A stretch of 20,031 bases of DNA from a virus (IMGVR_UViG_2541047753_000005), one strand, 5' to 3'; shown: positions 1-20,031, counted from the first letter of the stretch. Notes: generated from the letters alone by a model not told the origin. Numbers and translations are program-made.

Positions 1-1260
1 ATGCCAAAACTCACAGATATGCAGATCCGCGCATGGATAAAGGCGGGAGACAGATTTGATGGCAAGGCAGACGGCAACGGCCTTTATATTTGCTACCCAA
101 AAAACTACACAGTCCCGTTCTGGCGATTCCGCTATAAGCTCGCAGGAAAGCAGCGGGCTATGGTTATAGGCTCTTACTCCGAACTGTCACTATCAAAAGC
201 CAGAGAAACAGCAAAAGAGCTGTCAGCCAGAGTTGCTCTTGGCTATGACGTAGCAGCAGAGAAACAGGAACGAAAAGCTGAAGCACTGGCAAAAATGGAG
301 GCTGAGAAAAACGCCATGCGCGTTTCAGATCTGGCCGCCGAATACTTCGAGCGCCAGATACTTCCAAGATGGAAACATCCCGATATCCTTCGCCGGAGAA
401 TTGATAAGGATATTAACCCCTGCATTGGGCATATGAAGGTGGAGGACGTTAAGCCACGCCACATTGACGACATGTTGAAAGGTATCGTTGACCGAGGAGC
501 ACCAACGATAGCAACAGATGTATTACGCTGGACACGCCGTATCTTTGACTATGGGATAAAACGCCACGCTCTGGAGATAAACCCTTGTTCAGCGTTTGAA
601 GTATCTGATGCTGGTGGTAAAGAGGTTTCCCGCGACCGTTGGCTAACTCGCGATGAGCTTATCAGGCTATTCGAGGCTATGCGCACCGCAAAAGGATTCA
701 GCCGCCAGAACGAACTGACATTTAAGCTATTGCTGGCACTATGCGTTCGTAAGATGGAGTTATGCGCCGCACGATGGGAAGAGTTTGATTTAGATGGTGC
801 GGTATGGCATTTGCCGGAAGAACGCAGCAAAAACGGAGACCCTATTGATATACCTCTACCTTCCCCAGCCGTTGAATGGTTGAGAGAGCTACACACCTTT
901 TCATGTAATAGCGCATGGGTGCTTCCAGCCAGGAAGATGCAAAACAGAATGATCCCACATATTCAGGAAAGCACTTTGCCCGTAGCACTGGCTAAGGTTC
1001 GCGCCGAAATACCGGATGTGCCTAATTTCACGATTCACGACTTCCGACGCACCGCACGTACTCATTTAGCAGCGTTGGGTGTTGATCCTGTCGTGGCGGA
1101 ACGATGCCTCAATCATCGTATTAAGGGCGTAGAGGGGATTTATAACCGCCATCAGTATTTTGATGAGCGTAAAGCAGCACTGGCACAGTGGGCTGATCTG
1201 CTGGTGGCACTGGAAAGCGGAAAAGACCACAACGTAACGCCTCTCAGAAGGGCGAACTAA
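1..1260 (+). CDS. int: P4-family tyrosine integrase
   Basis: 419-aa ORF beginning exactly at window nt 1. C-terminal HDFRRT ... GIYNRHQY (His-x-x-Arg box and catalytic Tyr) and N-terminal LTD / DGNGLY / WRFRY segments are typical of P4-type integrases. The attachment site (normally a tRNA 3' end just upstream) is outside the window. Confidence 0.9.
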   Translation: MPKLTDMQIRAWIKAGDRFDGKADGNGLYICYPKNYTVPFWRFRYKLAGKQRAMVIGSYSELSLSKARETAKELSARVALGYDVAAEKQERKAEALAKMEAEKNAMRVSDLAAEYFERQILPRWKHPDILRRRIDKDINPCIGHMKVEDVKPRHIDDMLKGIVDRGAPTIATDVLRWTRRIFDYGIKRHALEINPCSAFEVSDAGGKEVSRDRWLTRDELIRLFEAMRTAKGFSRQNELTFKLLLALCVRKMELCAARWEEFDLDGAVWHLPEERSKNGDPIDIPLPSPAVEWLRELHTFSCNSAWVLPARKMQNRMIPHIQESTLPVALAKVRAEIPDVPNFTIHDFRRTARTHLAALGVDPVVAERCLNHRIKGVEGIYNRHQYFDERKAALAQWADLLVALESGKDHNVTPLRRAN

Positions 1261-2313: not shown

Positions 2314-2517
2314 ATGAACACCGACACGATTCCTACAAAAGGCTATATCAGACGCTTTCGCCTGGCTGAATTGCTGGGCGTTAGTGTATCCACCATCGAC
2401 CGTAAAGTAAGAAACGGTTCACTACCACGTCCGGTAAAGCTGGGAGAAAAAATAACTGCGTTTGATGCGGTTGAGATTCACAACTGGCTGGCAGAACGCC
2501 GCGGGAAGGTGGCCTGA
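2314..2517 (+). CDS. alpA: AlpA/Vis-family helix-turn-helix prophage regulator (excisionase-like)
   Basis: 67-aa ORF; HTH-like segment RLAELLGVSVSTIDRKVRNGSLPRPVKLG with C-terminal W/acidic tail typical of AlpA-family proteins. The int-X-alpA order matches CP4-57-like islands. Confidence 0.8.
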   Translation: MNTDTIPTKGYIRRFRLAELLGVSVSTIDRKVRNGSLPRPVKLGEKITAFDAVEIHNWLAERRGKVA

Positions 2518-3969: not shown

Positions 3970-5030
3970 CCGTCCAGAAGAAGATATTTTCACTGGCTGG
4001 TATGTCGCCAAAATCCAGCAATATAACAGCAAAGTCTGGCATTAATACAGCAGATACAAGCAAAGTTTATCATTTTCTGGTGGTAGGAGCGGATGCCTTA
4101 ACTATGTCAGAAATTACGGTCGATAGTGTTAGCGTTGAGAAGGTCGGCGGCTGCGCCAGAGAATTTCTGGTCGTAGATGGCTTTCTCTGCTCGCGTAGTG
4201 ACTCCACAAAAACCTTCGTCCACACGCGCGACGTTAACGAAATGAGCGCGATGTATTGTGCATCTGGTGCTTCCAATAGTGAGTTTTCGGAGTCCATAAA
4301 AAAGAGCTTGCCGTTATGCGGCAACACGGTTTATGGTTATAAGGCACCTCATAAAACGGGTGCCGGGATTGGCGTCCTGGTAAATCGAATGGCGACATAT
4401 GACGCGCCGAGCGTCTTTTTTTATGTCGTAGGTCTGACTCACCCATTTTTTGGGCGTTGGTGTATAATCCAGCGCCTTTGTCAATCAATGGTGGCTCAGG
4501 CAGGGGCTTCTTCGGAAGCGCCGGTATCCATTCGAGCCGGTTACGCCAACCCTGTCTGGGCTACCACCAGCGAAATTGGCGTTTCCGGTGGTAGCGTTAC
4601 ATGCTATCGAATGGAGGCTGCCACATGCTGGCTACTACCCCTACCCAAAAACCGCAATTTATCTGGATTATCGCCGCAGTTCGCCGCGATTGCCCGACAA
4701 TTACCGCCAAAATTCATCATATTGCTGCCGAGTCTGAACGCGATGCTCGCCGTTCTCTGGTGCGCGATCACGTCTGCTTTTTTGCTGGTCGTATCCGCAT
4801 GGAGGTGGCACATGATTAAAACCTACGATGTGCATATGGATCCCCTCGAACGCACAAGCCAGATCATCACACTGACAGAAGTGATTAACGACATTCTGGT
4901 GAGCAACTCTCCCTCACGAGACGAAAGACTGAAGGCGTTACTCGCGATATTGGATCTCGCCGTTCGTGACGTTCATTTCCTGCTGGAAGGTGGCGAAATG
5001 CCAGGAAAAACGGGGGCAACCAATGAATAA
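3963..5030 (+). CDS. hypothetical protein; extent uncertain (may be a shorter 5' gene plus untranslated leader plus a separate 72-aa gene at 4813..5030)
   Basis: ATG at 3963 has GGAGG about 7 nt upstream and is coupled to the preceding gene, so a real gene starts here. A 355-codon open frame is very unlikely by chance at this base composition. However the central part is compositionally odd, contains an extended -10 (TGTATAAT, 4461-4468) and stable hairpins, and the in-frame ATG at 4813 has its own strong GGAGGTGG Shine-Dalgarno. Confidence 0.35.
4461..4468 (+). promoter_or_regulatory. candidate extended -10 promoter element (TGTATAAT) ahead of the small-gene/primase operon
   Basis: Perfect TGnTATAAT at 4461-4468 with no convincing -35; preceded by a short GC hairpin plus T7 run (4401-4422). 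Position is analogous to the early promoter driving the primase operon in P4-type elements. Confidence 0.35.
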
Positions 5031-6642: not shown

Positions 6643-7006
6643 AAATGCAGAAATGGCGCTTAGCTCCGCAATCGGAGAGCAGGTGGCAAAGATTGCTGGC
6701 GCTGTGTGGATTCATAACCTTCATTCTACTAGTGAAGAGAAAATGGCAATTCAGACGCCAGAGGGACGCACCATTACTACATCTCTGAAGCCGTCAGATG
6801 TTTGTGATCTGATTTGCGCATTCATGTACCCAGCAATGAGGACTGTCCACGGCGATAAGTGGAAACTTGCGACAACCGCTGAATTTGATATGTGGCTAAA
6901 CAATGATGGCATGCTGACTGATTACGGAATAACCAAGTGGCAGATGCTGGTTAGCCATATCGCAAACGCTATAGACCACGTGGGGTACGGTGATGCGAAA
7001 CATTGA
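6635..7006 (+). CDS. hypothetical protein (123 aa)
   Basis: GGGAGG 5 nt upstream of ATG; 3' end overlaps the primase start. Confidence 0.65.
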   Translation: MRENAEMALSSAIGEQVAKIAGAVWIHNLHSTSEEKMAIQTPEGRTITTSLKPSDVCDLICAFMYPAMRTVHGDKWKLATTAEFDMWLNNDGMLTDYGITKWQMLVSHIANAIDHVGYGDAKH

Positions 7007-9749
7007 TCTTATCCGTCAGGTTATCAGTGCGTCTGAAAACAACTGGCCTCATGTGCTGGGCTGCCTGAACATAAATGTCCCTGACTCTCCGCGCCGTCAT
7101 GCTCCCTGCCCTGCATGTGGGGGCAAAGATCGATTCCGGTTCGATGACAACGGGCGCGGTAGCTTCATCTGTAATCAGTGCGGCGCTGGTGATGGGCTGG
7201 ATTTAATTAAACGCGTAAATAACTGCGACACAACAGAGGCGGCGCTTCTTGCCGCTGATGTTCTGGGTATTGATTACCGGACAACGGAAACACCAGAAGC
7301 CACCAGCCAGAAACGGGAACAACTGGAAACCGAGCGCCAGCGACGCGAACAGGAGCGCCTGAAAAGGGCAGAGAAGGACGAACAACAAAGACGGGATACG
7401 TTTTCCCGTCAGTTTGATGACATGCGCAGAAAGGCTGTAAACGGCAAATCTGATTATCTGGTTGCGAAAGGGGTAGGTGATTTTACATTCCCCGTGTTGC
7501 CCGATGGATCTCTGTTGCTGGCGCTGGTGGATAAATCCGGCGCAGTAACAGCAGCACAGACTATTACCTCACATGGTGAAAAAAGACTCCTGATAGGTTC
7601 AGCAAAGCGGGGGGCATATCACGCCATAAACGCACCAGAAACAACACAGAGCATCTTAATCGCAGAAGGGCTGGCAACGGCATTATCTGCCCATTTAATG
7701 CGTCCAGAGGCGCTGACAGTGGCGGCGATTGATGCCGGGAACCTGTTATATGTCGCCCAGGTACTGCGGGATAAATTTCCTTCAGCACAAATCATCATTG
7801 CTGCGGATAACGACCACAGCGAAGGAAGACAAAACACGGGGAGAATAGCAGCAGAAAAAGCAGCTTTATCTGTTTCTGGATGGGTGGCATTACCCCCGAC
7901 AGATCACAAAGCAGACTGGAATGATTACCACCAAAAACACGGCATTAAATGCGCCACAGAAGCGTTCAATAAGTCAATGTACCAACCACAGGGTAATGGC
8001 GTGAAACAGGAGCCACAAACCATTGAGGGAAGCGATTTTAAGGTTATGGATACCGACCCACTGAAACCAAGAATAGAAAGCCGCGAGGATGGCATTTATT
8101 GGGTATCTCCGAGAGCTGACAGCCAGAGTGGAGAAATCATCAATAACGAAAGCTGGTTATGTTCTCCGTTAAGCGTTATCGGTACTGGCAGAGACGATAA
8201 AGACCAGTATCTCATTCTTCGCTGGCTGTCGTTTGGTTCTGAAACGCCGACAACCGCTGCCATTCCACTGGCTGATATTGGTGAACGTGAAGGATGGCGC
8301 ACACTTAAAGCTGGTGGGGTAAATGTCACGACCAAAAACAGCCTCAGAGCAATACTGGCAGACTGGCTACAACGCAGTGGCTCTCGTGAATTGTGGCGTG
8401 TTGCTCATGCCACTGGCTGGCAATGCGGAGCGTACATCATGCCTGATGGGGAAATCATCGGAACACCTGAAAATCCTGTGCTGTTCAGCGGGAGAAGCTC
8501 AGCCGCAGCCGGATATACCGTCTCAGGGAGCGCGAAAAGCTGGCGTGATAACGTGGCGCGTCTGGCCTTTGGTAACTATTCAATGATGACCGGGATCGGC
8601 GCAGCACTGGCAGCGCCATTGATTGGGCTGGTGGGCGCTGACGGGTTCGGCATTCATTTCTATGAGCAGTCGAGCGCAGGTAAGACCACCACGGCAAACG
8701 TGGCGAGCAGCTTATACGGCAACCCTGATTTACTGCGGCTGACGTGGTACGGAACCGCGCTGGGGCTGGCAAATGAAGCCGCCGCCCACAATGACGGACT
8801 AATGCCGCTTGATGAAGTTGGTCAGGGCGCTGATCCTGTCAGTATTTCACAGTCTGCCTATGCGTTATTTAACGGTGTAGGGAAACTGCAAGGCGCTAAA
8901 GATGGTGGAAACCGGGATCTAAAACGCTGGCGTACAGTGGCAATCAGCACCGGAGAAATGGATTTAGAAACATTTATCGCTACTTCCGGGCGAAAAACCA
9001 AAGCCGGGCAACTGGTGCGACTGCTGAATATTCCGTTGAGTAAAGCAGTACGCTTTCACGATTACCAGAACGGAAAACAGCACGCAGACGCACTGAAAGA
9101 CGCTTACCAGCATCACCACGGCGCAGCCGGGCGTGAGTGGATTAAATGGCTGGCAGACCACCAGCAACAGGCAATTAAAACTGTTCGTGACTGCGAAAGC
9201 AGATGGAGAAGTCTGATCCCATCCGATTATGGTGAGCAGGTTCACCGTGTAGCCGCGCGATTTGCCATTCTGGAGGCCGCATTGCTGTTAGGCGAGGTTG
9301 TAACAGGCTGGGATGCTCAGACATGCCGTGATGCGATACAGCACAGCTATAACGCATGGTTGCGCGAGTTCGGCACAGGTAACAAAGAACATCAGCAGAT
9401 TATTGAACAAACGGAGGCATTTCTTAATGCCTATGGGCTTAGCCGTTTTGCACCATTTCCATACAGCCCGGCAGATTTGCCCATCAAAGATTTAGCCGGA
9501 TACCGTCAGCGTGGAGAACATGACGAAAGCCCAATGATTTTCTACACATTCCCGGCCACATTTGAAAAGGAGATCGCATGTGGTTTCAACGCAAAACAGT
9601 TTGCTGAAGTGTTGAAAAAAGCCGGGATGCTAACCCCACCAAACAGCGGTCGTGGATACCAAAGAAAATCACCACGTATTCAGGGACGACAAATAAACGT
9701 TTATGTACTCAATTACCAGCCAGGAGATTACAACTCATCTGAAGAATGA
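6993..9749 (+). CDS. replicative primase-helicase (P4 alpha-like: zinc ribbon, Toprim primase, P-loop NTPase domain)
   Basis: 918 aa from ATG 6993 (ORF-track start 6990 is a GTG). N-terminal zinc ribbon CPACGG...CNQCG; Toprim-like acidic motifs (LIAEG, AADNDH); Walker A-like EQSSAGKTTT and Walker B-like LMPLDEVG. An iteron array follows 26 bp after the stop. Confidence 0.85.
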   Translation: MRNIDLIRQVISASENNWPHVLGCLNINVPDSPRRHAPCPACGGKDRFRFDDNGRGSFICNQCGAGDGLDLIKRVNNCDTTEAALLAADVLGIDYRTTETPEATSQKREQLETERQRREQERLKRAEKDEQQRRDTFSRQFDDMRRKAVNGKSDYLVAKGVGDFTFPVLPDGSLLLALVDKSGAVTAAQTITSHGEKRLLIGSAKRGAYHAINAPETTQSILIAEGLATALSAHLMRPEALTVAAIDAGNLLYVAQVLRDKFPSAQIIIAADNDHSEGRQNTGRIAAEKAALSVSGWVALPPTDHKADWNDYHQKHGIKCATEAFNKSMYQPQGNGVKQEPQTIEGSDFKVMDTDPLKPRIESREDGIYWVSPRADSQSGEIINNESWLCSPLSVIGTGRDDKDQYLILRWLSFGSETPTTAAIPLADIGEREGWRTLKAGGVNVTTKNSLRAILADWLQRSGSRELWRVAHATGWQCGAYIMPDGEIIGTPENPVLFSGRSSAAAGYTVSGSAKSWRDNVARLAFGNYSMMTGIGAALAAPLIGLVGADGFGIHFYEQSSAGKTTTANVASSLYGNPDLLRLTWYGTALGLANEAAAHNDGLMPLDEVGQGADPVSISQSAYALFNGVGKLQGAKDGGNRDLKRWRTVAISTGEMDLETFIATSGRKTKAGQLVRLLNIPLSKAVRFHDYQNGKQHADALKDAYQHHHGAAGREWIKWLADHQQQAIKTVRDCESRWRSLIPSDYGEQVHRVAARFAILEAALLLGEVVTGWDAQTCRDAIQHSYNAWLREFGTGNKEHQQIIEQTEAFLNAYGLSRFAPFPYSPADLPIKDLAGYRQRGEHDESPMIFYTFPATFEKEIACGFNAKQFAEVLKKAGMLTPPNSGRGYQRKSPRIQGRQINVYVLNYQPGDYNSSEE

Positions 9750-9774: not shown

Positions 9775-9894
9775 GTTGGTTCAGTTGGTTCAGTTGGTTC
9801 AGTTGGTTCAATTTGTAAAGAGTATTGTTTTATAAGAATTTTATTCTTTTTATTGAACCAACACTGAACCAACAGCACGGTATTTTGAACCAAC
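9775..9894. repeat. iteron array / origin-like element, left copy
   Basis: Four tandem GTTGGTTCA units (9775-9810), an AT-rich spacer, then three inverted TGAACCAAC units at 9854, 9865 and 9886. Confidence 0.7.
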
Positions 9895-10213
9895 ACAATG
9901 TGACTGAATTGATGCGCACAACACCTGGCTGGCATCAGAGAGTGTTTTACGAGACTTTCGTAAAATCCTGTGTACAAGGGCGTGACGTTTTTGAAAGTGA
10001 GCACTACGAAATTTTCGTAGTTCAGAAAACAGCCCCTGAGAAGTTGTTATACCTGTTCAGCAAACCATCCGCATAGCTGATCGCGAATCAAATTACCAAT
10101 GGAGCCAGAAGCAAGGGCAGAACTGAAAAGCGCCTGCCGTGAAGAGTAATGCGACACCATAAATATAGTTTTTAGAGTCCATAAAAAACCTGTCAAAACC
10201 TGACACACAGAAC

Positions 10214-10247
10214 GATGCCACCAGCTACTGAGCGGTGGCATTTTTTT
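10214..10247 (+). terminator. intrinsic terminator
   Basis: GATGCCACC / GGTGGCAT stem with an 11-nt loop followed by a T7 run. Confidence 0.6.
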
Positions 10248-10342
10248 GTGCTATCTGTTTCATATTTTGCAATTACGATGATGAATATTGCGATTTGTGA
10301 AACTATAATAACTGTTGTTTTATACAGTTCTAAGGGGGCGTT

Positions 10343-10504
10343 ATGGCTATTTCAGTAAAGCCGGTATTGATAAGTGAGAAGCAAATGGAAGCGATAAAGA
10401 AAATTCAGGAAGAGCAGCGTAAAAAATCAGGAATTGGAGTAGCGCCAACTCTGCATGAAATTGCACGAGGGTTAATAGATAAGGCGCTGGCAGGCTGTAT
10501 GTGA
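10343..10504 (+). CDS. small protein (53 aa), possibly ribbon-helix-helix-like DNA-binding protein
   Basis: Not in the ORF track (under 60 aa). ATG at 10343 preceded by AAGGGGG about 6 nt upstream and a TATAAT at 10304-10309. Predicted short beta-strand (ISVKPVLIS) followed by two helices; fold assignment is a guess. Confidence 0.5.
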   Translation: MAISVKPVLISEKQMEAIKKIQEEQRKKSGIGVAPTLHEIARGLIDKALAGCM

Positions 10505-10520
10505 AAATGGATGGCATCGC

Positions 10521-10982
10521 ATGGAACTAAAATTTATTGATAACCCTGTGCGATTACAGGCCTTTCTCAACGAGCCTGGCAATACCGAAAATATTGTTGA
10601 GCCGGGGCACACGTACTACATCAAGCCTGATGCGGTATATCTCGGTATCTACGAAGGATTGGTGCTGGCTGGCGTTCATGAAGTGCGTAACTTCTGGCAT
10701 AGCATTGTTGAATGCCATGCGGTGTACGACCCCGGATTCCGTGGTGAATATGCACTGCAAGGGCATCGATTATTCTGCAAATGGCTTCTCGAAAACTCAC
10801 CATTCCTTAACAGCATTACCATGGTTCCTGACACAACGAAATACGGACGGGCAATTATCCGTTTGCTTGGCGCTACCCGTGTTGGTCACCTTGATGATGC
10901 TTATATCAGATGTGGTAAACCCGTCGGCGTAACGCTTTATCAGTTAACTCGGCAACAATATAAGGAATTCAGCGAATGTTAA
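10521..10982 (+). CDS. hypothetical protein at the position of gene 14 in P22-type ejection-gene blocks
   Basis: 153-aa ORF; stop overlaps the start of the next gene. Assignment by position only. Confidence 0.6.
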   Translation: MELKFIDNPVRLQAFLNEPGNTENIVEPGHTYYIKPDAVYLGIYEGLVLAGVHEVRNFWHSIVECHAVYDPGFRGEYALQGHRLFCKWLLENSPFLNSITMVPDTTKYGRAIIRLLGATRVGHLDDAYIRCGKPVGVTLYQLTRQQYKEFSEC

Positions 10983-11653
10983 TTACCCATATAGCTCATA
11001 AACATCTCAATCGTGCCGTATACGAAAAAGGCGGTGATGGTGGTGCCTCTAAAGCTCAGGCGAAGGCCCAGCAGCAGGCAATTGATTTGCAGCGCGAGCA
11101 GTGGAATACGGTGATGAATAATCTCAAGCCGTATGCAGAAGTCGGATTGCCTGCTTTACAACAACTACAAGGACTGATGACTCTGGAAGGGCAGAATAAA
11201 GCCGCGAATGATTTCTTTGGTTCTGGTTTATATAAAACACAGGCAGATCAGGCCCGTTATCAGAACCTTGTCTCAGCAGAAGCTACCGGGGGGCTTGGCT
11301 CAACAGCTACCAGTAACCAGTTATCTTCCATTGCGCCCATGCTTTATAACAATTGGCTTAGTGGGCAAATGCAAAATTATGGAAACCTGCTAAATGTCGG
11401 GATGAATGCGGCATCAGGGCAGGCAACAGCAGGGCAAAACTACGCCAATAATACCGGACAACTCTTGCAGGGGCTTGGCGCTATTCGTGCAGGTCAGGCG
11501 CAGCAGCCATCCAGTCTTGCGCGTGGTATTGGTGGGGCGGCATCAGGCGCTTTAGCGGGTGCGCAACTTGGTTCCGTTGTTCCGGGTATAGGTAATGTCG
11601 CCGGGGCTATTGGTGGTGGGCTTATTGGTCTTGTTGGGGGGCTTGGATTCTAA
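10976..11653 (+). CDS. putative podovirus ejection (DNA-transfer) protein, P22 gp7-like
   Basis: 225 aa (P22 gp7 is about 229 aa as I recall). Gln/Ala/Gly-rich low-complexity protein with a Gly-zipper hydrophobic C-terminus (GALAGAQLGSVVPGIGNVAGAIGGGLIGLVGGLGF). Start overlaps the upstream stop. Homology inferred from size, order and composition, not from a search. Confidence 0.5.
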   Translation: MLITHIAHKHLNRAVYEKGGDGGASKAQAKAQQQAIDLQREQWNTVMNNLKPYAEVGLPALQQLQGLMTLEGQNKAANDFFGSGLYKTQADQARYQNLVSAEATGGLGSTATSNQLSSIAPMLYNNWLSGQMQNYGNLLNVGMNAASGQATAGQNYANNTGQLLQGLGAIRAGQAQQPSSLARGIGGAASGALAGAQLGSVVPGIGNVAGAIGGGLIGLVGGLGF

Positions 11654-13074
11654 TGGCGACATGGCAACTTGGCGGGCTGCCTAGCATGGTACCGCAAAAT
11701 GATAATGCTCCTCGTTCTTCCGTTCCTCAGCCTGTGCAGTTTCAGCAGCAGCCAAACGTAGGTTTAATGGCGCTACAGGGGCTAAGAGGCGTTGCTGAGA
11801 TTAATCAGCAGGCACGTCAACAACAGCGTAAAGCAGAGTTTCAGAAAGCATATGCCGGGGCTTTTGAGTCTGGAGACAGAAACAAAATGCGCAGTCTTAT
11901 TTCTGAGTATCCAGAAGAATTTGAAAGCGTTCAGAAAGGGATGGGCTTTATTGATGACGACCAGAGAAATTCTATTGGTCATCTTGCGACTAGTGCTCAA
12001 ATCGCATCTTCGCTCGGAACTGGGGCATTTGGAAAATTCATAGCAGATAACGAAGATGAAATGCGTCGCTTGGGAATTTCTCCTGAGTCTGTTGCCGAAA
12101 TGCATGTTAATGATCCACAGGAATTCCAGCGGCTTGCTGGTAGTATGGCACTGTTTTCTCTCGGTCATGAGAAGTACTTCGATATCAAAGATCGAATGGA
12201 AGGTCGGGATATTGAGCGTGGCAAGTTGGCAGAGACAATCCGCAGCAATCAGGCTGGAGAGGCGCTTCAGGCGAGAGGGCAGGATATTAGCCGAGCAAAT
12301 GCGTTAACGTCAGCATATGCACCAACAGCCGCAATGCAGAATTACAATCAGTACGCGCAAATGTTAAAGGCGGATCCAGAGGGGGCAGCGGCATTTGCGG
12401 CAGCGGCTGGAATTAATACAAACGCCAAAAAATTAATGAGTGTTAGGGAAAACGATGATGGCACTGTCACAAAATACTACACAGACGGAAGTGAAGAGCA
12501 GGGAAAACTAAACCAGCCAATATCTGGAGATGGGTTTCGTCCAATAGCTTTGCCAACAGCCCAAAAGATCATGGAAAAGTCGCCAGAAGGGGCTAAAAAA
12601 GCTGCTGGATTTGCATACAGAGTTAGGGATGCTCTTGATTCAATGGATACACTGAAAGGCCAGCTTAGCCCACAGCGAGTGGCGATCATTAATAATGCTT
12701 TGGGTAATGGGACGCTGGCTAACTTAACGCTCAGCCCAACAGAGCAGCAATACGTTGTTAATGCTAATGACGCAATAATGGCAATACTCCGTCAGGAAAC
12801 AGGGGCAGCTATCGTACCTGCTGAAATGTCAAAATATTATCAAATGTATTTCCCTCAGCCTGGCGACTCCACAAAAACCATTGATACCAAGCGCCGGAAG
12901 ATGGAAAACCAGTTCAATTCGCTGAAAGCTGCTTCTGGTCGAGCTTATGATGCTTTGCGTGTTATTTCAGCAGTTGACAGAGGAACTTCTTCTTCGTCGC
13001 AGACATTGCCGCAATCTGAGCAGGTATCACAGCCAGCAGCCAGCAGTAATTTTTCTTCACTATGGGGTGATTAA
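11653..13074 (+). CDS. putative podovirus ejection (DNA-transfer) protein, P22 gp20-like
   Basis: 473 aa (P22 gp20 is about 471 aa as I recall); TAATG stop/start overlap with the preceding gene; Gln-rich N-terminus. Confidence 0.5.
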   Translation: MATWQLGGLPSMVPQNDNAPRSSVPQPVQFQQQPNVGLMALQGLRGVAEINQQARQQQRKAEFQKAYAGAFESGDRNKMRSLISEYPEEFESVQKGMGFIDDDQRNSIGHLATSAQIASSLGTGAFGKFIADNEDEMRRLGISPESVAEMHVNDPQEFQRLAGSMALFSLGHEKYFDIKDRMEGRDIERGKLAETIRSNQAGEALQARGQDISRANALTSAYAPTAAMQNYNQYAQMLKADPEGAAAFAAAAGINTNAKKLMSVRENDDGTVTKYYTDGSEEQGKLNQPISGDGFRPIALPTAQKIMEKSPEGAKKAAGFAYRVRDALDSMDTLKGQLSPQRVAIINNALGNGTLANLTLSPTEQQYVVNANDAIMAILRQETGAAIVPAEMSKYYQMYFPQPGDSTKTIDTKRRKMENQFNSLKAASGRAYDALRVISAVDRGTSSSSQTLPQSEQVSQPAASSNFSSLWGD

Positions 13075-15179
13075 TGGCTAAAGCATGGAAAGATGTTATC
13101 GCCTCTCCACAGTATCAGGCGTTAGCACCAGAACAAAAAGTGCAGGCTCAGGAGCAATACTTCAATGAAGTCGTGGCCCCGCAAGCCGGAGAAAGTGTAG
13201 AGCAGGCTAAGCAGGCTTTTTATGCTGCCTATCCACTACCATCTACGAATGAAATAGACCGCTCCCAATCAGCAACTCAAAATATTCAACATACATCATC
13301 TGATAATTCTCTTGCGTCAGGGTATGCAAAGTTAGCTACTCAGCAAAGAGAGGGGCTTGAGCGTTCAGCAGAACAGGGAGCCAGTCTTGGGACTGCGATG
13401 CGCGATGCTATAACAGGCGAAAGCCGAATGACTCCAGAGATGGAGAGACTGCAAAATGTCGCCTCTGCCCCAGAATTGAACTCACTAAGCATGGATGCCC
13501 TGAAGGCTGGATGGTCTCAACTTTTCGGCTCTGACGCGTCTCAGGAAAAGATTCTTCAGGGCATGGGGGCGACATTAAGGCAGGATGAGAAGGGGAATAC
13601 TATCGTTTCTCTGCCATCAGGTGATTATGCCCTGAACAAGCCGGGTTTATCACCGCAAGACCTGACTTCGTTTCTGGCTAATGCGCTGGCGTTTACACCA
13701 GCGGGCAGGGCTGGAACGGTGCTTGGTGCCATAGGAAAATCAGCAGCTACAGATTTAGCACTACAGGGAGCCACCAGCAAGGCTGGTGGAGAAGATATTG
13801 ATCCGTTACAAACGGTAATTTCTGCTGGCATTGGTGGTATTGGTAAGGGGCTGGAAAATACAGCGAGTGCGGTTTCGAGGGCTGTTCGTGGTGATATGTC
13901 GCCTGAAGCAAAGGCTGCTGTCGACTTTGCATCGGAAAGAAATCTGCCGTTAATGACCAGTGACATGCTGAAAGATAAAACCTTTATGCAGAGTCAGGCT
14001 CAGACATTAGGCAAAAGAGTTCCTTTTTTTGGAACCGGTAAGAATCGGCTGAATCAACAACAAGCACGAGAAAATTTAGTCAGAACATTTAGCGATGGTC
14101 TGGGTGGCATTTCTGATAAACAGCTTTATGAATCTGCGACTAAAGGGCAACAAAAATTCATTGAGGCAGCAGGAAAGCGATATAACCGCATAATTGACGC
14201 TATGGGGGATACCCCTGTCGATCTCTCAAACACGGTAAAAACTATCGACAATCAGATTGCCGTGTTAAGCCGCCCTGGCAAATCTCAGGATAGAGCCGCG
14301 GTAAAAGTCTTGCAGCAATTTAAAGACGATATCACCAGCGGACCAAATGACCTGCGTCTGGCGAGGGAAAACAGAACCGATCTTCGAAAGCGATTTATAG
14401 CGTCATCTGACACTGTTGATAAAGATACGCTCCAGAAAGCCAGCGATATTATCTACAAGGCATATACGGCGGATATGAAAAAAGCCGTAGCCAAAAATCT
14501 TGGAGCAGACGAAGCCATTAATATGGCAAGGGTTGATCGCTCATGGTCTAAATTCAATGACATGATGGGAAGAACGCGCGTTCAAAAGGCAATAGCCAGC
14601 GGCAAGGCCACGCCTGAGGATGTAACAAAACTCGTTTTTAGCCAAAGCCCATCAGAACGTTCTCAGCTTTACAGGCTTCTGGATGACAATGGTAGGCAAA
14701 ACGCACGAGCAGCTATAGTTCAGAATGCTGTAGATAAGGCGACTGATCCGTCTGGAAATATCAGTGTTGAGAAGTTTATTAATGCGTTACACCGGAACAG
14801 GAAGCAATCAGCAACTTTCTTTAAAGGCGTACATGGAAAGGAACTGGACGGCGTTATTAAATACCTCAACGATACAAGACACGCGGCAAAAGCGAACGTT
14901 CAAAACTTAAATGGTCAGCAGCTTTATGGATTGTTAGTTGGTGGTGGCATCATAAACGCAGCAGTATTGGCGGGGATGCTAAAAACGGCTGCGTTTGTTG
15001 TTCCTGCTGCTGGTGCCGTAGGCGGAGCAGCGAAGGCATACGAAAGCCCTGTTATACGAAATGCCTTGTTACGTCTGGCAAATACGCCAAAAGGTAGCAC
15101 AGCATATGACAGAGCGATCAGTACGGTCACACAATCGCTCACCAGAGTCGCACAGGCATCACAAAAAGAAGCTCAATAA
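13074..15179 (+). CDS. putative podovirus ejection (DNA-transfer) protein, P22 gp16-like
   Basis: 701 aa; TAATG overlap with the preceding gene; low-complexity Ala/Gln/Gly-rich protein with a hydrophobic Gly/Ala-rich segment near the C-terminus (LYGLLVGGGIINAAVLAGMLKTAAFVVPAAGAVGGAAKA). Third and largest gene of the block, as in P22. Confidence 0.5.
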   Translation: MAKAWKDVIASPQYQALAPEQKVQAQEQYFNEVVAPQAGESVEQAKQAFYAAYPLPSTNEIDRSQSATQNIQHTSSDNSLASGYAKLATQQREGLERSAEQGASLGTAMRDAITGESRMTPEMERLQNVASAPELNSLSMDALKAGWSQLFGSDASQEKILQGMGATLRQDEKGNTIVSLPSGDYALNKPGLSPQDLTSFLANALAFTPAGRAGTVLGAIGKSAATDLALQGATSKAGGEDIDPLQTVISAGIGGIGKGLENTASAVSRAVRGDMSPEAKAAVDFASERNLPLMTSDMLKDKTFMQSQAQTLGKRVPFFGTGKNRLNQQQARENLVRTFSDGLGGISDKQLYESATKGQQKFIEAAGKRYNRIIDAMGDTPVDLSNTVKTIDNQIAVLSRPGKSQDRAAVKVLQQFKDDITSGPNDLRLARENRTDLRKRFIASSDTVDKDTLQKASDIIYKAYTADMKKAVAKNLGADEAINMARVDRSWSKFNDMMGRTRVQKAIASGKATPEDVTKLVFSQSPSERSQLYRLLDDNGRQNARAAIVQNAVDKATDPSGNISVEKFINALHRNRKQSATFFKGVHGKELDGVIKYLNDTRHAAKANVQNLNGQQLYGLLVGGGIINAAVLAGMLKTAAFVVPAAGAVGGAAKAYESPVIRNALLRLANTPKGSTAYDRAISTVTQSLTRVAQASQKEAQ

Positions 15180-15197
15180 CTGGTTAGCCACGGATGG

Positions 15198-15674
15198 CTA
15201 ATTTTTGTTCTTTGCTCTCATCCACAGGTAAAGAAGGGCAAGAACAAGACAAAAAACAGAGAATAGATGACCTACCTCATATGGTGCGCCCAAAAAATTA
15301 GCTATTGATACGGGCAAAAAAGCTGAAGCGATCAAAATTGAAAGGCAAAAAATAAGCCCAGTAATATAGTTTATTAAATTCTTAAATGAGAAATGTTTTG
15401 CTTGATTTACGGTCTTAGCGAATGATCGCTTAACGACGGATAAAAGCAAATAGATGGCGACAGTTGCTAATGCCCCTTTCCACCAGTCTGGATATAGTTT
15501 TGCGACAATCAGACCAAGGAAAACCATGATGACAGCCTGAGCATTCACACCAACCCTCCCTTTAGCGTTGTTTAGAATGGCAATCATCATATATCCAAGA
15601 CATGGCATTTGGTACATAGCTTGGGTCGGGATTTCAAATCCGATCCCCGTTGATGGGGCCGTTACAGTGCGCAC
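15198..15674 (-). CDS. polytopic inner-membrane protein, candidate superinfection-exclusion protein (SieA-like by position)
   Basis: Convergent with the ejection operon and AT-rich. About four hydrophobic helices. The ORF-track start at 15674 is a GTG; an in-frame GTG preceded by GGGAGGG (protein then begins VNAQAVIMVF) is a more plausible start, so the 5' end is uncertain. P22 sieA occupies this position and orientation after gene 16. Confidence 0.5.
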   Translation of the reverse strand: MRTVTAPSTGIGFEIPTQAMYQMPCLGYMMIAILNNAKGRVGVNAQAVIMVFLGLIVAKLYPDWWKGALATVAIYLLLSVVKRSFAKTVNQAKHFSFKNLINYITGLIFCLSILIASAFLPVSIANFLGAPYEVGHLFSVFCLVLALLYLWMRAKNKN

Positions 15675-15766
15675 ATATCCGCTTTATGTGAAACAGGAAG
15701 ATTTTTCTGATATCACTGCCACAGCAAAACACCAATTTCGAGACAAGTACGCGTGCGAGGGGTATC

Positions 15767-15788
15767 AGTTGCAAAAAATTTTGCAACT
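15767..15788. promoter_or_regulatory. near-palindromic operator-like site
   Basis: AGTTGCAAAA-AA-TTTTGCAACT: 10-bp perfect inverted arms separated by 2 bp, in the gap between the membrane-protein gene and the second alpA gene. Confidence 0.4.
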
Positions 15789-16581
15789 ACGTCCGACCAG
15801 TATGCACACGATGGCGGGGGGATACCATAAAACTGTTCTCTACATGAGACAGAGTGGTGGTGATGTGTTGATTATCGGCGTATATGCGCACAGGACGCGC
15901 TATGACGATGTTTTATGCGGGTACACCAATCACATGTATCTGGTGTGATAAATCGCGTTACATGACCTCTCATGTTGTGCTGGTGGTTATCACGACGTTC
16001 TGAATCTGGCCTTTGCCTGGTATTTTGCGACAAGTACGCGCGCGTAGCATCGAAATAATCGGATGGCGTATGCTGCTGGTAATATGAAGACCGATAGCAT
16101 TAACCGAAAGGAGAAAGACTTCTCGATAACGGCAAGGGGGCTGAATTGCGAGGCGAGATTAAGCAACTGTCTTGAACGTAAAAATCATGGAGCAACATGA
16201 TGGTACGATTCATTCCATTCTTCGTTCTTTCTGAGCATTGCGTTCAGGCTTAGTCAAAATTAGTGTTGCGAGCGGACCTATTAGTAATTGTTGGTGCGAT
16301 GCGCCTGTTATGGATTGTTATGGTTGTGGCAGGCCTGATTAATATCCAGTATGACCACCAGCTATGAGAGGCCACCTCAGTGGTTCGCAGTTGCAGGTTT
16401 GCACTCAGGTTCGCAGGGTTTTGGCTACTTTCACGTGCGAACCTGCAGAATTGCAAAGGACAACTAAGTCCTCTGGCCAACTCCCGGTTTATGAGCGACA
16501 CAGTCCGCCTGGCGCATCGTTTTCGTCGAGTGCGCCCATCAGCTTGTCCATGGACTATCCACCACTCGATATTAAAGCTAA

Positions 16582-16767
16582 TCATTGGTTGCCAGCCCGC
16601 GAATCAAGTTTGTTCTGGATCCAAGCTTCAACCTCCTCAAGCGACCATCTAGCTGATCTACCAATTTTAACTGGCTGTGGAAACGTGCCCGTCTTAACCC
16701 ATGAGTAGATTGCCGTTTTCTTGAAGCCCGTTCTGAGCATGACTTCGCTTAATTTGATAAGGCGCAT
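16582..16767 (-). CDS. AlpA/Vis-family helix-turn-helix regulator, second copy
   Basis: 61-aa ORF on the minus strand; LSEVMLRTGFKKTAIYSWVKTGTFPQPVKIGRSARWSLEEVEAWI is a typical AlpA-family sequence; GAGGAG Shine-Dalgarno 5 nt upstream of the ATG. Confidence 0.75.
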   Translation of the reverse strand: MRLIKLSEVMLRTGFKKTAIYSWVKTGTFPQPVKIGRSARWSLEEVEAWIQNKLDSRAGNQ

Positions 16768-17019
16768 AGAGGCTCCTCTGCTTTAGATTAAGCATAGTGA
16801 CAATCTGGCTTTGGGCGGTATCCAAAAGCGAGGTATCCATGTTGGTATCCACCAAAACGCTGTTTACCAAAAAAGTTACCACCGGAACAGGACATTTTGA
16901 GCTGTAACTTAACACATAGCATATGGAGTTCACGCATAGACTTCACGCACAACGGCTCCGGCCAGTGAAGAATCACCCTGGCTGGCAATATAATGCCGAT
17001 CACCATCAGAGGGGAATCC

Positions 17020-17211
17020 ATGACACCACGAGAAATCGAGCTGCTGACCATTGCCAAGCTGGAGCATGACGGCCACCAGCTCAGCCCGGCAGAACTGCGG
17101 GAATTAAGGCGCCAGCTGGCAGAGGGCCCTGTAATAGCCAGGCGGTACCGCGAAATGATGACCAGCCACGCATATCGCTGGAGCAAACCAGCGCCGCTCC
17201 GTGCGCGGTGA
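17020..17211 (+). CDS. small hypothetical protein (63 aa)
   Basis: ATG at 17020 preceded by AGAGGGG; a TATAAT lies at 16989-16994. Divergent from the second alpA gene. The ORF-track start at 16993 overlaps the -10 and is less likely. Confidence 0.4.
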   Translation: MTPREIELLTIAKLEHDGHQLSPAELRELRRQLAEGPVIARRYREMMTSHAYRWSKPAPLRAR

Positions 17212-17285
17212 GCAGCACCTAACCAGCACTAGACAAGCCCTGTGCTGGTGGATGTCCCTCATAATTAGCGGTTTTTAAACGGCGT

Positions 17286-17406
17286 GTTGGTTCACGGCCT
17301 CTTTTTGTTGGTTCAAAAATGGGGTGTGTTGGTTCACATTTTGCGAATAATCCTTTTAAAAACAATACTCTTTACAAATTGAACCAACTGAACCAACTGA
17401 ACCAAC
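17286..17406. repeat. iteron array / origin-like element, right copy (reverse complement of the left copy)
   Basis: Three GTTGGTTCA units spaced 21 bp apart (17286, 17307, 17328), AT-rich spacer, three tandem TGAACCAAC units (17380-17406). 17359-17406 is an exact 48-bp inverted repeat of 9784-9831. Confidence 0.7.
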
Positions 17407-17442: not shown

Positions 17443-17730
17443 ATGATAAGGGACAGGAAAGCTGAAGAGCTGGAGTTAAAAGGGCTATGCCGGAGAGCTG
17501 CCACACGATGGGCAGAAGTCATGACGCTGGCAGATGGCGATAAAGAACGTGAACATGCAGCAAACAGACGCTCTGAATGTATCCGTAGGGCGGCACGCCC
17601 ACCAGCAACTACAGACAGATTCGGAGACTTAAGACAGGCAGTTAAGCGAACGCATTCAGCTCTTGGTATGGATGAGGAAGCGAGAGGGTACTTCAGGCGT
17701 TATCGCGATAAAGATTGCCAGCTACGATAA
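17443..17730 (+). CDS. hypothetical protein (95 aa, Arg-rich)
   Basis: GAGAGG Shine-Dalgarno 5 nt upstream of ATG; begins just right of the iteron array; no recognised motif. Confidence 0.45.
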   Translation: MIRDRKAEELELKGLCRRAATRWAEVMTLADGDKEREHAANRRSECIRRAARPPATTDRFGDLRQAVKRTHSALGMDEEARGYFRRYRDKDCQLR

Positions 17731-18712: not shown

Positions 18713-19020
18713 AGTCCGTTTCCCCATTCTATGTAAATACACTTCCTAAAAATAGCGATTAACTTACCTCTCACAATCAATTTCACGAGCAATACGCGTG
18801 CGCAGTACAACAAGCCTGAACAGGGTTACACACCTCGATCGTGAGCGATGTAGACAATGGCTTTTGACCAAAGCACCAGAAAAAACCGTGTACATAAGGG
18901 TGTACATAATCAAAAAAATCATTAGAAAGAAATCAGCCACAATGCGGCATTGAAGCCAATACTCTACAAACAGATCCAAGAATAACTCGTAACGCCAATT
19001 CTTCCTTTTCAGCCTTCACA

Positions 19021-19206: not shown

Positions 19207-20031
19207 ATGAACGAACATCATCAACCTTTTGAAGAAATACGGCATTATGGCACTGAAGGGCAAGAATTTTGGTCAGCGAGAGAATTGGCACCGTTACTGG
19301 ATTATCGGGACTGGCGCAATTTTCAAAAGGTACTGGCCCGCGCGACTCAAGCGTGCGAAGCCAGCAATCAAGCTGCATCTGACCATTTCGTTGAAACCAC
19401 CAAAATGGTTGTATTAGGTTCAGGGGCTCAACGAGAACTTGAAGATGTTCATCTCTCCCGCTATGCCTGTTACCTGGTAGTACAAAACGGCGACCCTGCG
19501 AAACCGGTTATTGCGGCAGGGCAAACTTATTTTGCTATCCAGACCCGACGGCAGGAGCTGGCTGACGATGAAGCTTTCAGGCAACTTCGTGAAGACGAAA
19601 AGCGTCTTTTTCTGAGAAATGAGTTGAAAGAACATAACAAACAATTAGTTGAGGCAGCGCAGCAAGCTGGGGTAGCGACAGCTATCGATTTCGCCATATT
19701 TCAGAATCATGGTTACCGGGGACTGTATGGTGGATTAGATCAGAAAGCCATCCATCAGCGGAAGGGGCTGAAAAAGAGTCAGAAGATCCTGGATCATATG
19801 GGTTCAACAGAACTGGCGGCTAATCTCTTTCGAGCTACCCAAACAGAAGAAAAACTCAAGCGGGATGGCGTGAATTCAAAACAGCAAGCTAATACCACAC
19901 ACTTTGACGTGGGTCGCAAGGTGAGGCAAACCATTCAGGAACTTGGCGGAACCATGCCTGAGGAGTTGCCGACCCCGCAGGTCAGCATCAAGCAGTTGGA
20001 AAACAGTGTAAAAATTACAGAGAAGAAATAG
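19207..20031 (+). CDS. dinD: DNA-damage-inducible protein D
   Basis: 274 aa from ATG 19207 (MNEHHQPFEEIRHYGTEGQEFW...), matching my recollection of enterobacterial DinD; LexA box upstream; complete, with TAG at 20029-20031. The ORF-track start at 19195 adds four residues and is probably too long. Confidence 0.8.
   Translation: MNEHHQPFEEIRHYGTEGQEFWSARELAPLLDYRDWRNFQKVLARATQACEASNQAASDHFVETTKMVVLGSGAQRELEDVHLSRYACYLVVQNGDPAKPVIAAGQTYFAIQTRRQELADDEAFRQLREDEKRLFLRNELKEHNKQLVEAAQQAGVATAIDFAIFQNHGYRGLYGGLDQKAIHQRKGLKKSQKILDHMGSTELAANLFRATQTEEKLKRDGVNSKQQANTTHFDVGRKVRQTIQELGGTMPEELPTPQVSIKQLENSVKITEKK

Follow-up and report, generated by a model that had tools for sequence, protein, structure and literature searches.

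The origin is probably a mirror pair of iteron units with a variable module between its halves

The DNA analyzed here, a stretch of 20,031 nucleotides from the viral record IMGVR_UViG_2541047753_000005 (the window), holds a ~19-kb satellite of the phage-inducible chromosomal island (PICI) type that belongs to the EcCIMP1 family and is inserted between yicC and dinD in Escherichia coli. A cluster of 9-bp iterons directly follows the gene of its primase-helicase, Pri-Rep, and a mirror-image cluster lies more than 7 kb further on, past a set of helper-like genes. We favor, with a probability of roughly 0.6, the reading that the two clusters form a single origin system that was split at a hotspot, its mirror units now flanking the satellite's variable module. 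The origin type itself is already known; what is new is a layout in which mirror halves of an origin are separated by a variable module.

The proximal unit (L, positions 9775 to 9894, plus strand) is composed of four tandem copies of GTTGGTTCA (9775 to 9810), a 43-nt spacer of 86% A+T (9811 to 9853), and three inverted copies (9854 to 9862, 9865 to 9873, and 9886 to 9894) spaced 11 and 21 bp apart. The distal unit (R, 17286 to 17406, minus strand) mirrors it, with three plus-strand copies spaced 21 bp apart (starting at 17286, 17307, and 17328), a 43-nt spacer of 77% A+T (17337 to 17379), and three tandem inverted copies (17380 to 17406). A first-pass annotation, made from the sequence alone, had described two mirror-image copies of an iteron origin with this make-up on the left and this spacing on the right, and the coordinates bear it out, the two clusters being reverse complements of each other. 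The 48-nt exact inverted match that it reported (9784 to 9831 and 17359 to 17406) was also found and is the longest perfect inverted repeat in the window. Its placement of the left copy 26 bp past the primase stop was corrected to 25 nt, as the open reading frame (ORF) ends at 9749, and its view that an iteron origin is to be expected directly after such a primase-helicase was supported.

All 13 exact GTTGGTTCA 9-mers of the 20-kb window fell inside the two ~120-bp clusters, which are 7,391 bp apart. With at most one mismatch, 19 matches were obtained compared to 4.8 ± 2.2 in shuffled sequences, none of 100 shuffles reaching 19. The two copies are a real, conserved pair and not a chance resemblance. 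Pairwise alignment limited the homology between L and R to ~130 bp, namely, the iterons and the first 21 nt of the A+T-rich spacer, while the remaining spacer and the stretches between the spaced units have diverged. No known RNA family in Rfam overlapped either unit. The number of tandem iterons was variable, with four on the left in the window, three in elements 99.9% identical to it (L001, 23775 to 23801; L numbers designate loci of our comparison), and seven in an Erwinia element (L063, 3988 to 4050), which suggests slippage.

The double mirror unit is usual in the lineage

We compared the units across 77 loci encoding primase homologues, one genome per species, each scanned for iterons; about 60 were elements with an origin, from other Enterobacterales. 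The geometry of the L unit (tandem units at a 9-bp spacing, the first inverted unit 52 bp further on, and then steps of 11 and 21 bp, in short 9/9/52/11/21) was kept almost everywhere in these relatives. The second unit had a geometry of 21-24/21/52 or 43/9/9, preserved at every distance. In ~31 loci it was adjacent, with 42 to 170 bp between the units and everything within roughly 300 bp, while in 12 loci it was split off by 0.16 to 8.9 kb (the window, L014, L021, L022, L028, L036, L039, L043, L056, L061, L062, and L063). Only the left unit was present within the available flank in ~17 loci, five of them ended by contig ends. Split second units always had a spacer of 52 to 61 bp, and the A+T content was 72 to 88% in the 14 aligned units measured, while many adjacent second units harbored a 43-bp G+C-rich spacer instead.

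The first-pass annotation had assumed that a single origin array is usual, which does not hold for this lineage. We regard its origin as an old, two-part mirror pair, of which the R unit of the window is one half and not an extra copy, because the double mirror unit, and not the single array, is usual among the relatives. The annotation had itself named a picture that would speak against its proposal, in which all related elements carry a single array and the genes in question belong to a separate prophage with its own ends. The relatives are not all single-array elements, and the segment between the units has no integrase, att ends, capsid, or terminase of its own, only four ejection-module genes and small ORFs. 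In Yersinia pekkanenii (L035, 8154 to 14214), the double origin occurs three times within 6 kb, and a protein with an HNH endonuclease domain is encoded at the primase region.

Variable DNA starts just after a conserved central motif

The L-unit module ends in a conserved central motif, CTGGCTGGCA(T/G), at 9925 to 9935 (plus strand) in the window, directly followed by the variable DNA. In many loci of several iteron types, this motif, a T-rich run and then CTGGCTGGCAG, was found ~134 bp past the first iteron, a fixed offset. In adjacent-type loci, the second unit begins with an iteron that directly adjoins the motif, and in split loci the variable DNA starts directly after it; homology between the window and the element of strain PA45B, described below, resumes at ~9941. 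As read from these alignments, the insertion point of the variable DNA is consistent, lying just after the CTGGCTGGCA motif.

Two further features of this region were observed. A perfect 9-bp inverted repeat (CCAGCCAGG and CCTGGCTGG, 9716 to 9724 and 9924 to 9932) flanks the left origin unit, its first arm lying in the last primase codons (the conserved QPE tail) and its second being the central motif. In some relatives the central motif is GCTGGTGG, the Chi sequence, and the window has two Chi sequences (GCTGGTGG, plus strand) in the right part of the intervening segment, at 15979 to 15986 and 17244 to 17251, the latter ~35 bp upstream of the R unit.

A C-terminal segment of Pri-Rep co-varies with the iterons

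Pri-Rep (6990 to 9749, plus strand) is a 919-residue protein with a zinc ribbon, a Toprim primase, and a DUF927 helicase (Pfam), followed by a predicted C-terminal DNA-binding region. Its helicase part matched PDB sequences 8tch ("Pathogenicity island protein," a chain of the SaPI type; E = 2e-11) and 5dgk (Cch helicase), and the predicted structure of its last 280 residues (mean predicted local distance difference test score [pLDDT], 76) matched 5dgk (E = 4e-5). The C-terminal 90 residues were modeled as helices and a hairpin (pLDDT, 84 to 96) and resembled the oriT-binding accessory protein 5vfx weakly.

Eight iteron sequences were found among the loci, namely, GTTGGTTCA, GTTGTCTCA, ACGGGTTA, GTCGGTTCA, GTCGGGTA, GTGGGTTA, CTTATCCCA, and GGTCGGTT, and wherever both units were present, L and R always had an identical iteron sequence. 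In an alignment of 54 primases, Pri-Rep residues 879 to 900 (…GYQRKSPRI…; codons at 9624 to 9689, plus strand) showed an identity of 0.86 to 0.88 within an iteron type compared to 0.38 to 0.46 between types, while the between-type difference was far smaller in other parts of the C-terminal region. RKSP-I was present in 36 of 36 GTTGGTTCA-type proteins, and GRV-E took its place in five of five GTTGTCTCA-type proteins. Since iteron type and protein segment co-vary, which is indirect but specific evidence, Pri-Rep would read both units. The co-variation supports well the view that both are Pri-Rep binding arrays recognized by its C-terminal region, and it points to residues ~879 to 900 as a candidate specificity determinant.

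The distal unit is conserved beyond what recency would predict

To assess the conservation of the second unit, we took 14 A+T-spacer examples, whether split or adjacent, which represent more than 10 genera. Mean column identity was 98% in the iterons, 80% in the A+T-rich region, 63% in the spacers between iterons, and 58% in the flanks. Because the iterons are so much better conserved than the spacers adjoining them over this range of genera, selection rather than recency would account for their state, and by this measure the distal unit is under purifying selection. Concerted evolution of the two units was considered and rejected, as A+T spacer identity was 0.49 within an element versus 0.51 to 0.60 between elements; only in the window, L061, and L062 were the first 21 nt of the spacer homogenized between units. 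The 48-nt match thus consists mostly of conserved iterons and a short shared stretch and gives no evidence of recent duplication, since spacers within an element are no more alike than those between elements.

One locus combines units of two types. In L061, a degenerate second unit with repeats closer to the GTTGTCTCA type (13016 to 13140) stands beside a GTTGGTTCA-type left unit, with an intact cognate unit 6.7 kb away, an arrangement that suggests recombination at the central motif between satellites of different Rep specificity.

Possible roles of the distal unit

Each unit presents GTTGGTTCA iterons converging on an A+T-rich stretch, the layout that is bound and melted by the Rep helicases of PICIs and of Staphylococcus aureus pathogenicity islands (SaPIs). 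In most relatives the units lie back to back after pri-rep, and in the split-origin reading variable DNA would have been placed between them after CTGGCTGGCA, in the window element and in at least 11 other lineages, so that the units now bracket 7.4 kb in the window element. The C-terminal region of Pri-Rep would bind both units, and the distal one would still serve replication, either as a second helicase-loading site or as a cis partner joined to the proximal unit by Rep-mediated looping, like crr with ori in P4. We put the chances that the distal unit is a second initiation site or a crr-like partner at slightly better than even. An ori plus a crr-like partner had been one of the proposals of the first-pass annotation, and it fits the comparative data, in which the units are either adjacent or split by 0.16 to 8.9 kb of different genes.

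Several observations weigh against a split origin that is still in use. Past the 21 nt at its start, the A+T spacer of one unit resembles that of its partner in the element no more than it resembles spacers from other elements. About 12 relatives with 9 to 10 kb of downstream sequence show the proximal unit only, indicating that the second unit is not kept everywhere or lies farther off than the available flank. In addition, the PA45B element (L002), which occupies the same chromosomal site and shares the N-terminal primase domain (residues 1 to 345, 85% identity over the aligned stretch), encodes a chimeric replicase (L002, 9315 to 13000) with a helicase and C-terminal half of the DUF5906 type and has its own iterons, GTGGTACAG, in two inverted clusters bracketing two small ORFs. 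Despite this non-cognate replicase, a GTTGGTTCA distal unit remains intact upstream of perC (19780 to 19900), showing that such a unit can outlast the protein to which it is cognate. The distal unit is also retained in O111:H8, in an island that has decayed (L003). The distal unit may not be essential everywhere.

The same cases are what one would expect if the distal array were a functionless half-origin stranded by recombination between satellites, too recent to have decayed: PA45B retains it beside a non-cognate replicase, the L003 remnant retains it, the long-flank relatives do without it, and a cloned pri-ori region sufficed for plasmid replication of EcCICFT073 in the experiments described in PMC6092414. 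However, the contrast between conserved iterons and diverged adjoining spacers across more than 10 genera, and a unit geometry preserved whatever the distance, do not suit a leftover. L061 moreover pairs a degenerate non-cognate proximal unit with an intact cognate distal one, and the cloned EcCICFT073 origin is itself composite, its far end being formed by an inverted tandem set; we consider a leftover unlikely. A negative role, in which Rep bound at both units "handcuffs" the origin and limits copy number, is established for the extra iteron arrays of iteron plasmids (PMC4980987) and would be compatible with two units that have the same iterons and presumably bind the same protein. Satellites, however, need fast amplification after helper induction, PICIs are not reported to have a plasmid state (PMC6092414), and each unit, with its own A+T-rich stretch and convergent iterons, is organized like an initiation site rather than a bare control array, making such a role improbable.

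That the distal array serves mainly in transcriptional control, with Rep bound there regulating perC or the divergent small genes, seems improbable too, even though perC starts 37 nt past the distal unit in the window, directly follows one or the other unit in L005, L014, L022, L024, L028, and L029, and is accompanied by the array in PA45B and L003. There is no fixed promoter geometry, because perC borders the tandem iterons of the unit in some elements but its spaced iterons in others, and in many loci with the unit perC is absent or more than 0.5 kb off. A promoter and terminator scan detected no sigma-70-like site in or adjoining either unit, and the A+T-rich core and the mirror symmetry would be left unexplained. 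The first-pass annotation had also suggested that the inverted copies make the 7.4-kb segment invertible or independently amplifiable. The perfect 48-nt inverted repeat could indeed allow rare RecA-dependent inversion, but no inverted isomer was found at ~34 junctions in 30 viral and metagenome contigs with the 39-nt core, all of which were collinear. E. coli genome searches across each of the two junctions likewise gave only collinear matches among those sampled, with no break at the origin; at the left junction, 364 E. coli records had a query coverage of 80% or more. Pfam detected no gene for an invertase or resolvase in or beside the segment, int being the sole recombinase, and the genes have the same orientation in EcCIMP1, strain 042, and E66. 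Invertibility or separate amplification of the segment is thus very improbable.

A stronger version of the split-origin reading, which we regard as speculative and on balance unlikely, is that the mirror units are one obligate origin that works only when Pri-Rep at both is joined, looping out the DNA between them. The ~120-bp units would then also be fixed homology arms, because every satellite of one Rep specificity carries the same two, and the origin would double as a site of cassette exchange.

Relation to known origins and satellites

In PMC6092414 and PMC9371898, as far as their accounts of replication go, the origins of PICIs and SaPIs are located directly 3' of rep, with opposite-facing iterons on each side of an A+T-rich region, and the iterons are recognized by the C-terminal winged-helix domain of Rep, a self-loading helicase. 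The L unit of the window conforms to this, being located directly after pri-rep with convergent iterons around an A+T-rich region. The difference is the second mirror unit, a complete iteron/A+T/iteron module 7.4 kb off with genes between, whereas these accounts (Fillol-Salom 2018, PMC6092414; Qiao 2022, PMC9371898) describe the origin as a single site after rep. The origin of EcCICFT073 (L114, E. coli CFT073, 14005 to 14240; iteron TGTCTACC), whose cloned pri-ori region is reported in PMC6092414 to be enough for plasmid replication, is a multipart array resembling the adjacent double unit of our loci, in that a G+C-rich, hairpin-like spacer precedes the inverted tandem pair at its end. Because this origin is itself composite, the adjacent double arrangement is probably what was cloned as "the ori." 

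Among the closest known systems is EcCIMP1, the PICI of E. coli MP1, which is mobilized by the P22-like phage Kapi1 (PMC11773190); dependence of induction, replication, and packaging on a helper was shown for this relative with Kapi1 only (PMC11773190). The gene order of the window element is that of EcCIMP1 (int, alpA, antA, ash, Toprim/DUF927 primase, DUF2824, gp7-like, gp20-like, a large ejection-type protein, a small helix-turn-helix [HTH] protein, and perC), and EcCIMP1 likewise has two mirror-image GTTGGTTCA arrays, with 8.4 kb between them. EcCIMP1 differs in having its own integrase and att site (tRNA-Thr near proA, versus yicC/dinD in the window element) and a last ejection-type gene of the lytic transglycosylase type. 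Its origin and iterons are not described in PMC11773190, in which the word "iteron" occurs 0 times. Iterons shared with the helper phage were ruled out for Kapi1, which has no iteron cluster; the iterons are satellite specific.

A two-site arrangement is familiar from the satellite P4. Its primase-helicase has a C-terminal DNA-binding domain, and its ori and crr are clusters of the same iteron located several kilobases apart, crr being a second site that is paired with ori and required in cis for initiation; this work reportedly goes back to Flensburg and Calendar in 1987 and to Ziegelin and coworkers in 1993. The window element resembles P4 in having a satellite primase-helicase with a C-terminal DNA-binding domain (predicted here), two clusters of one iteron kilobases apart, and a second site proposed to act in cis. 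It differs in that its helicase is of the DUF927/SaPI-Rep type and not P4 alpha and in that its units are inverted, each with its own A+T-rich core. A relationship with P4 alpha was rejected, as sequence and fold searches of Pri-Rep gave no P4 alpha match and Pri-Rep does not have the P4 alpha-type combination of a primase, a D5-like helicase, and a type I iteron-binding domain. P4 is also mentioned in PMC6092414.

PICIs are described as having an accessory hotspot next to pri, with variable accessory and defense genes directly downstream (He et al. 2024, PMC11364771). In relatives of the window element, that place is occupied by genes for Fic, P4 Beta_protein, MazF, and Tlde1. In contrast to the account of PMC11364771, which in the sections concerned draws no link to the origin, 12 of our loci have the hotspot enclosed by the two origin units.

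The DNA between the units is the satellite's own module

The first-pass annotation had proposed that foreign genes were captured by recombination at the origin. Capture at this place fits the relatives, in which the units are adjacent or split by different genes, but the "cargo" is not a foreign prophage; as in EcCIMP1, it is the satellite's own variable accessory and helper-exploitation module downstream of pri. In the window, its left part is a helper-like DNA-delivery module (10521 to 15179, plus strand; Pfam DUF2824, P22_gp7, and Inj_translocase; RefSeq "P22-gp16 family") composed of a gp14-like DUF2824 gene (10521 to 10982), gp7 (10976 to 11653), gp20 (11653 to 13074), and a gp16-family gene (13074 to 15179), all on the plus strand. 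Patches of this module are 86 to 93% identical in nucleotide sequence to P22-like phages, and its gene order matches that of the helper phage Kapi1.

In other genera, the genes between the units encode tape-measure proteins, SLT-domain proteins (584 to 600 residues), Dit, hub, spike, Fic, P4 Beta_protein, MazF, Tlde1, and SSB. Adjacent-unit loci have similar tape-measure and SLT genes downstream of both units, and it follows that the module belongs to the lineage and that only its place relative to the second unit varies. Homologues of helper genome-delivery genes after the origin (P22 gp14/7/20/16, TMP_3, TMP_4, large SLT-domain proteins, Dit, hub, and gpV-spike) recur across the PICI lineage, being present in the window, L022, L056, L023, L053, L017, L005, L021, L061, L040, L033, L036, and L039, with no capsid or terminase genes alongside. 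We found no published description of this delivery-gene pattern in PICIs; the genes may serve satellite injection or may interfere with the helper.

The right part of the intervening segment (15198 to 17186, minus strand) consists of small minus-strand ORFs and low-coding DNA with repeated 23-nt motifs. It includes a gene for an Xis/AlpA-like HTH protein (16582 to 16767, minus strand), the EcCIMP1 homologue of which is named alpA_1 (PMC11773190). We considered a second initiator gene near the R unit and rejected it, as only this HTH gene and unannotated small ORFs are found there and they are missing beside the unit in other genera. The 23-nt motif, ATTT(C/T)G(A/C)GACAAGTACGCG(T/C)GCG, occurs at 15735 to 15757, 16022 to 16044, and 18780 to 18802; it is also found in EcCIMP1, PA45B, L003, and many metagenome contigs, and in L062, a Serratia element, a copy closely precedes the distal unit. 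A stretch of ~95 nt in this part (16162 to 16256) has 94 to 96% matches in thousands of E. coli genomes; the annotation at these sites reads "IS110 family transposase | putative zinc ribbon protein."

Ends and gene layout of the element

The window is 99.9% identical to E. coli chromosomes, in which the host flanks are yicC and dinD. The element is bounded by a 24-nt direct att repeat, 92% identical between its copies (L001, 13920 to 13943 and 32878 to 32901), with 18.96 kb in between. The first copy, attL, lies ~58 to 81 bp upstream of window position 1, and the attR core (CGTGTACATAAGGGTGTACATAAT) forms the right end of the satellite at 18878 to 18901 (plus strand), followed by host dinD from 19195. 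At the left end, a tyrosine integrase gene (1 to 1260, plus strand; Pfam Arm-DNA-bind_3, Phage_int_M, and Phage_integrase) is separated from the following genes by an int-alpA RNA motif (1269 to 1335; Rfam RF02996, 60.6 bits). An AlpA-like HTH regulator is encoded in the same direction as int (2314 to 2517, plus strand; RefSeq annotation of an identical element), and at the right a PerC-family regulator (17443 to 17730, plus strand; Pfam PerC, 1e-30) follows the R unit. Besides the int-alpA RNA, two Rfam matches scored above the gathering threshold, an isrK Hfq-binding RNA (4344 to 4421) and a C4 antisense RNA (4484 to 4571), both inside the Ash ORF region.

This layout is that of Gram-negative PICIs as outlined in PMC6092414. 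The element has int at one end, then a co-oriented alpA and rightward core genes (int, the alpA-like HTH gene, AntA, Ash, and the Toprim/DUF927 primase are all on the plus strand), then pri-rep and, directly after it, an origin whose A+T-rich region is flanked by iterons. Its size is within ~10 to 20 kb, it is flanked by att sites, and it has no full set of phage structural and lysis genes, its only virion-related genes being the gp14/7/20/16 homologues. Strain 042 carries a 99.4% identical element, also at yicC/dinD; the identity of that element with the published "EcCIO42" was not established, because the marker given in the paper is at locus 1749.

Implications for PICI replication

In the published picture, as drawn in the sources cited above, the PICI origin is a single site after rep and the pri hotspot is a separate feature. 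To this the present data add one widespread PICI lineage of enterobacteria in which a mirror pair makes up the origin and its two halves enclose the hotspot. This provides a testable case of long-range origin architecture in a satellite, resembling P4 ori-crr but with a probable SaPI-type Rep, and it suggests a rule for annotation, namely, that the second cognate iteron unit delimits the variable module. Should replication require the distal unit, the function of the origin would be coupled to the size of the payload. If, in addition, the two units do form one obligate pair, helper-specific delivery cassettes (ejection, tape-measure, and tail-tip proteins) and defense genes could be swapped between satellites while replication remains undisturbed.

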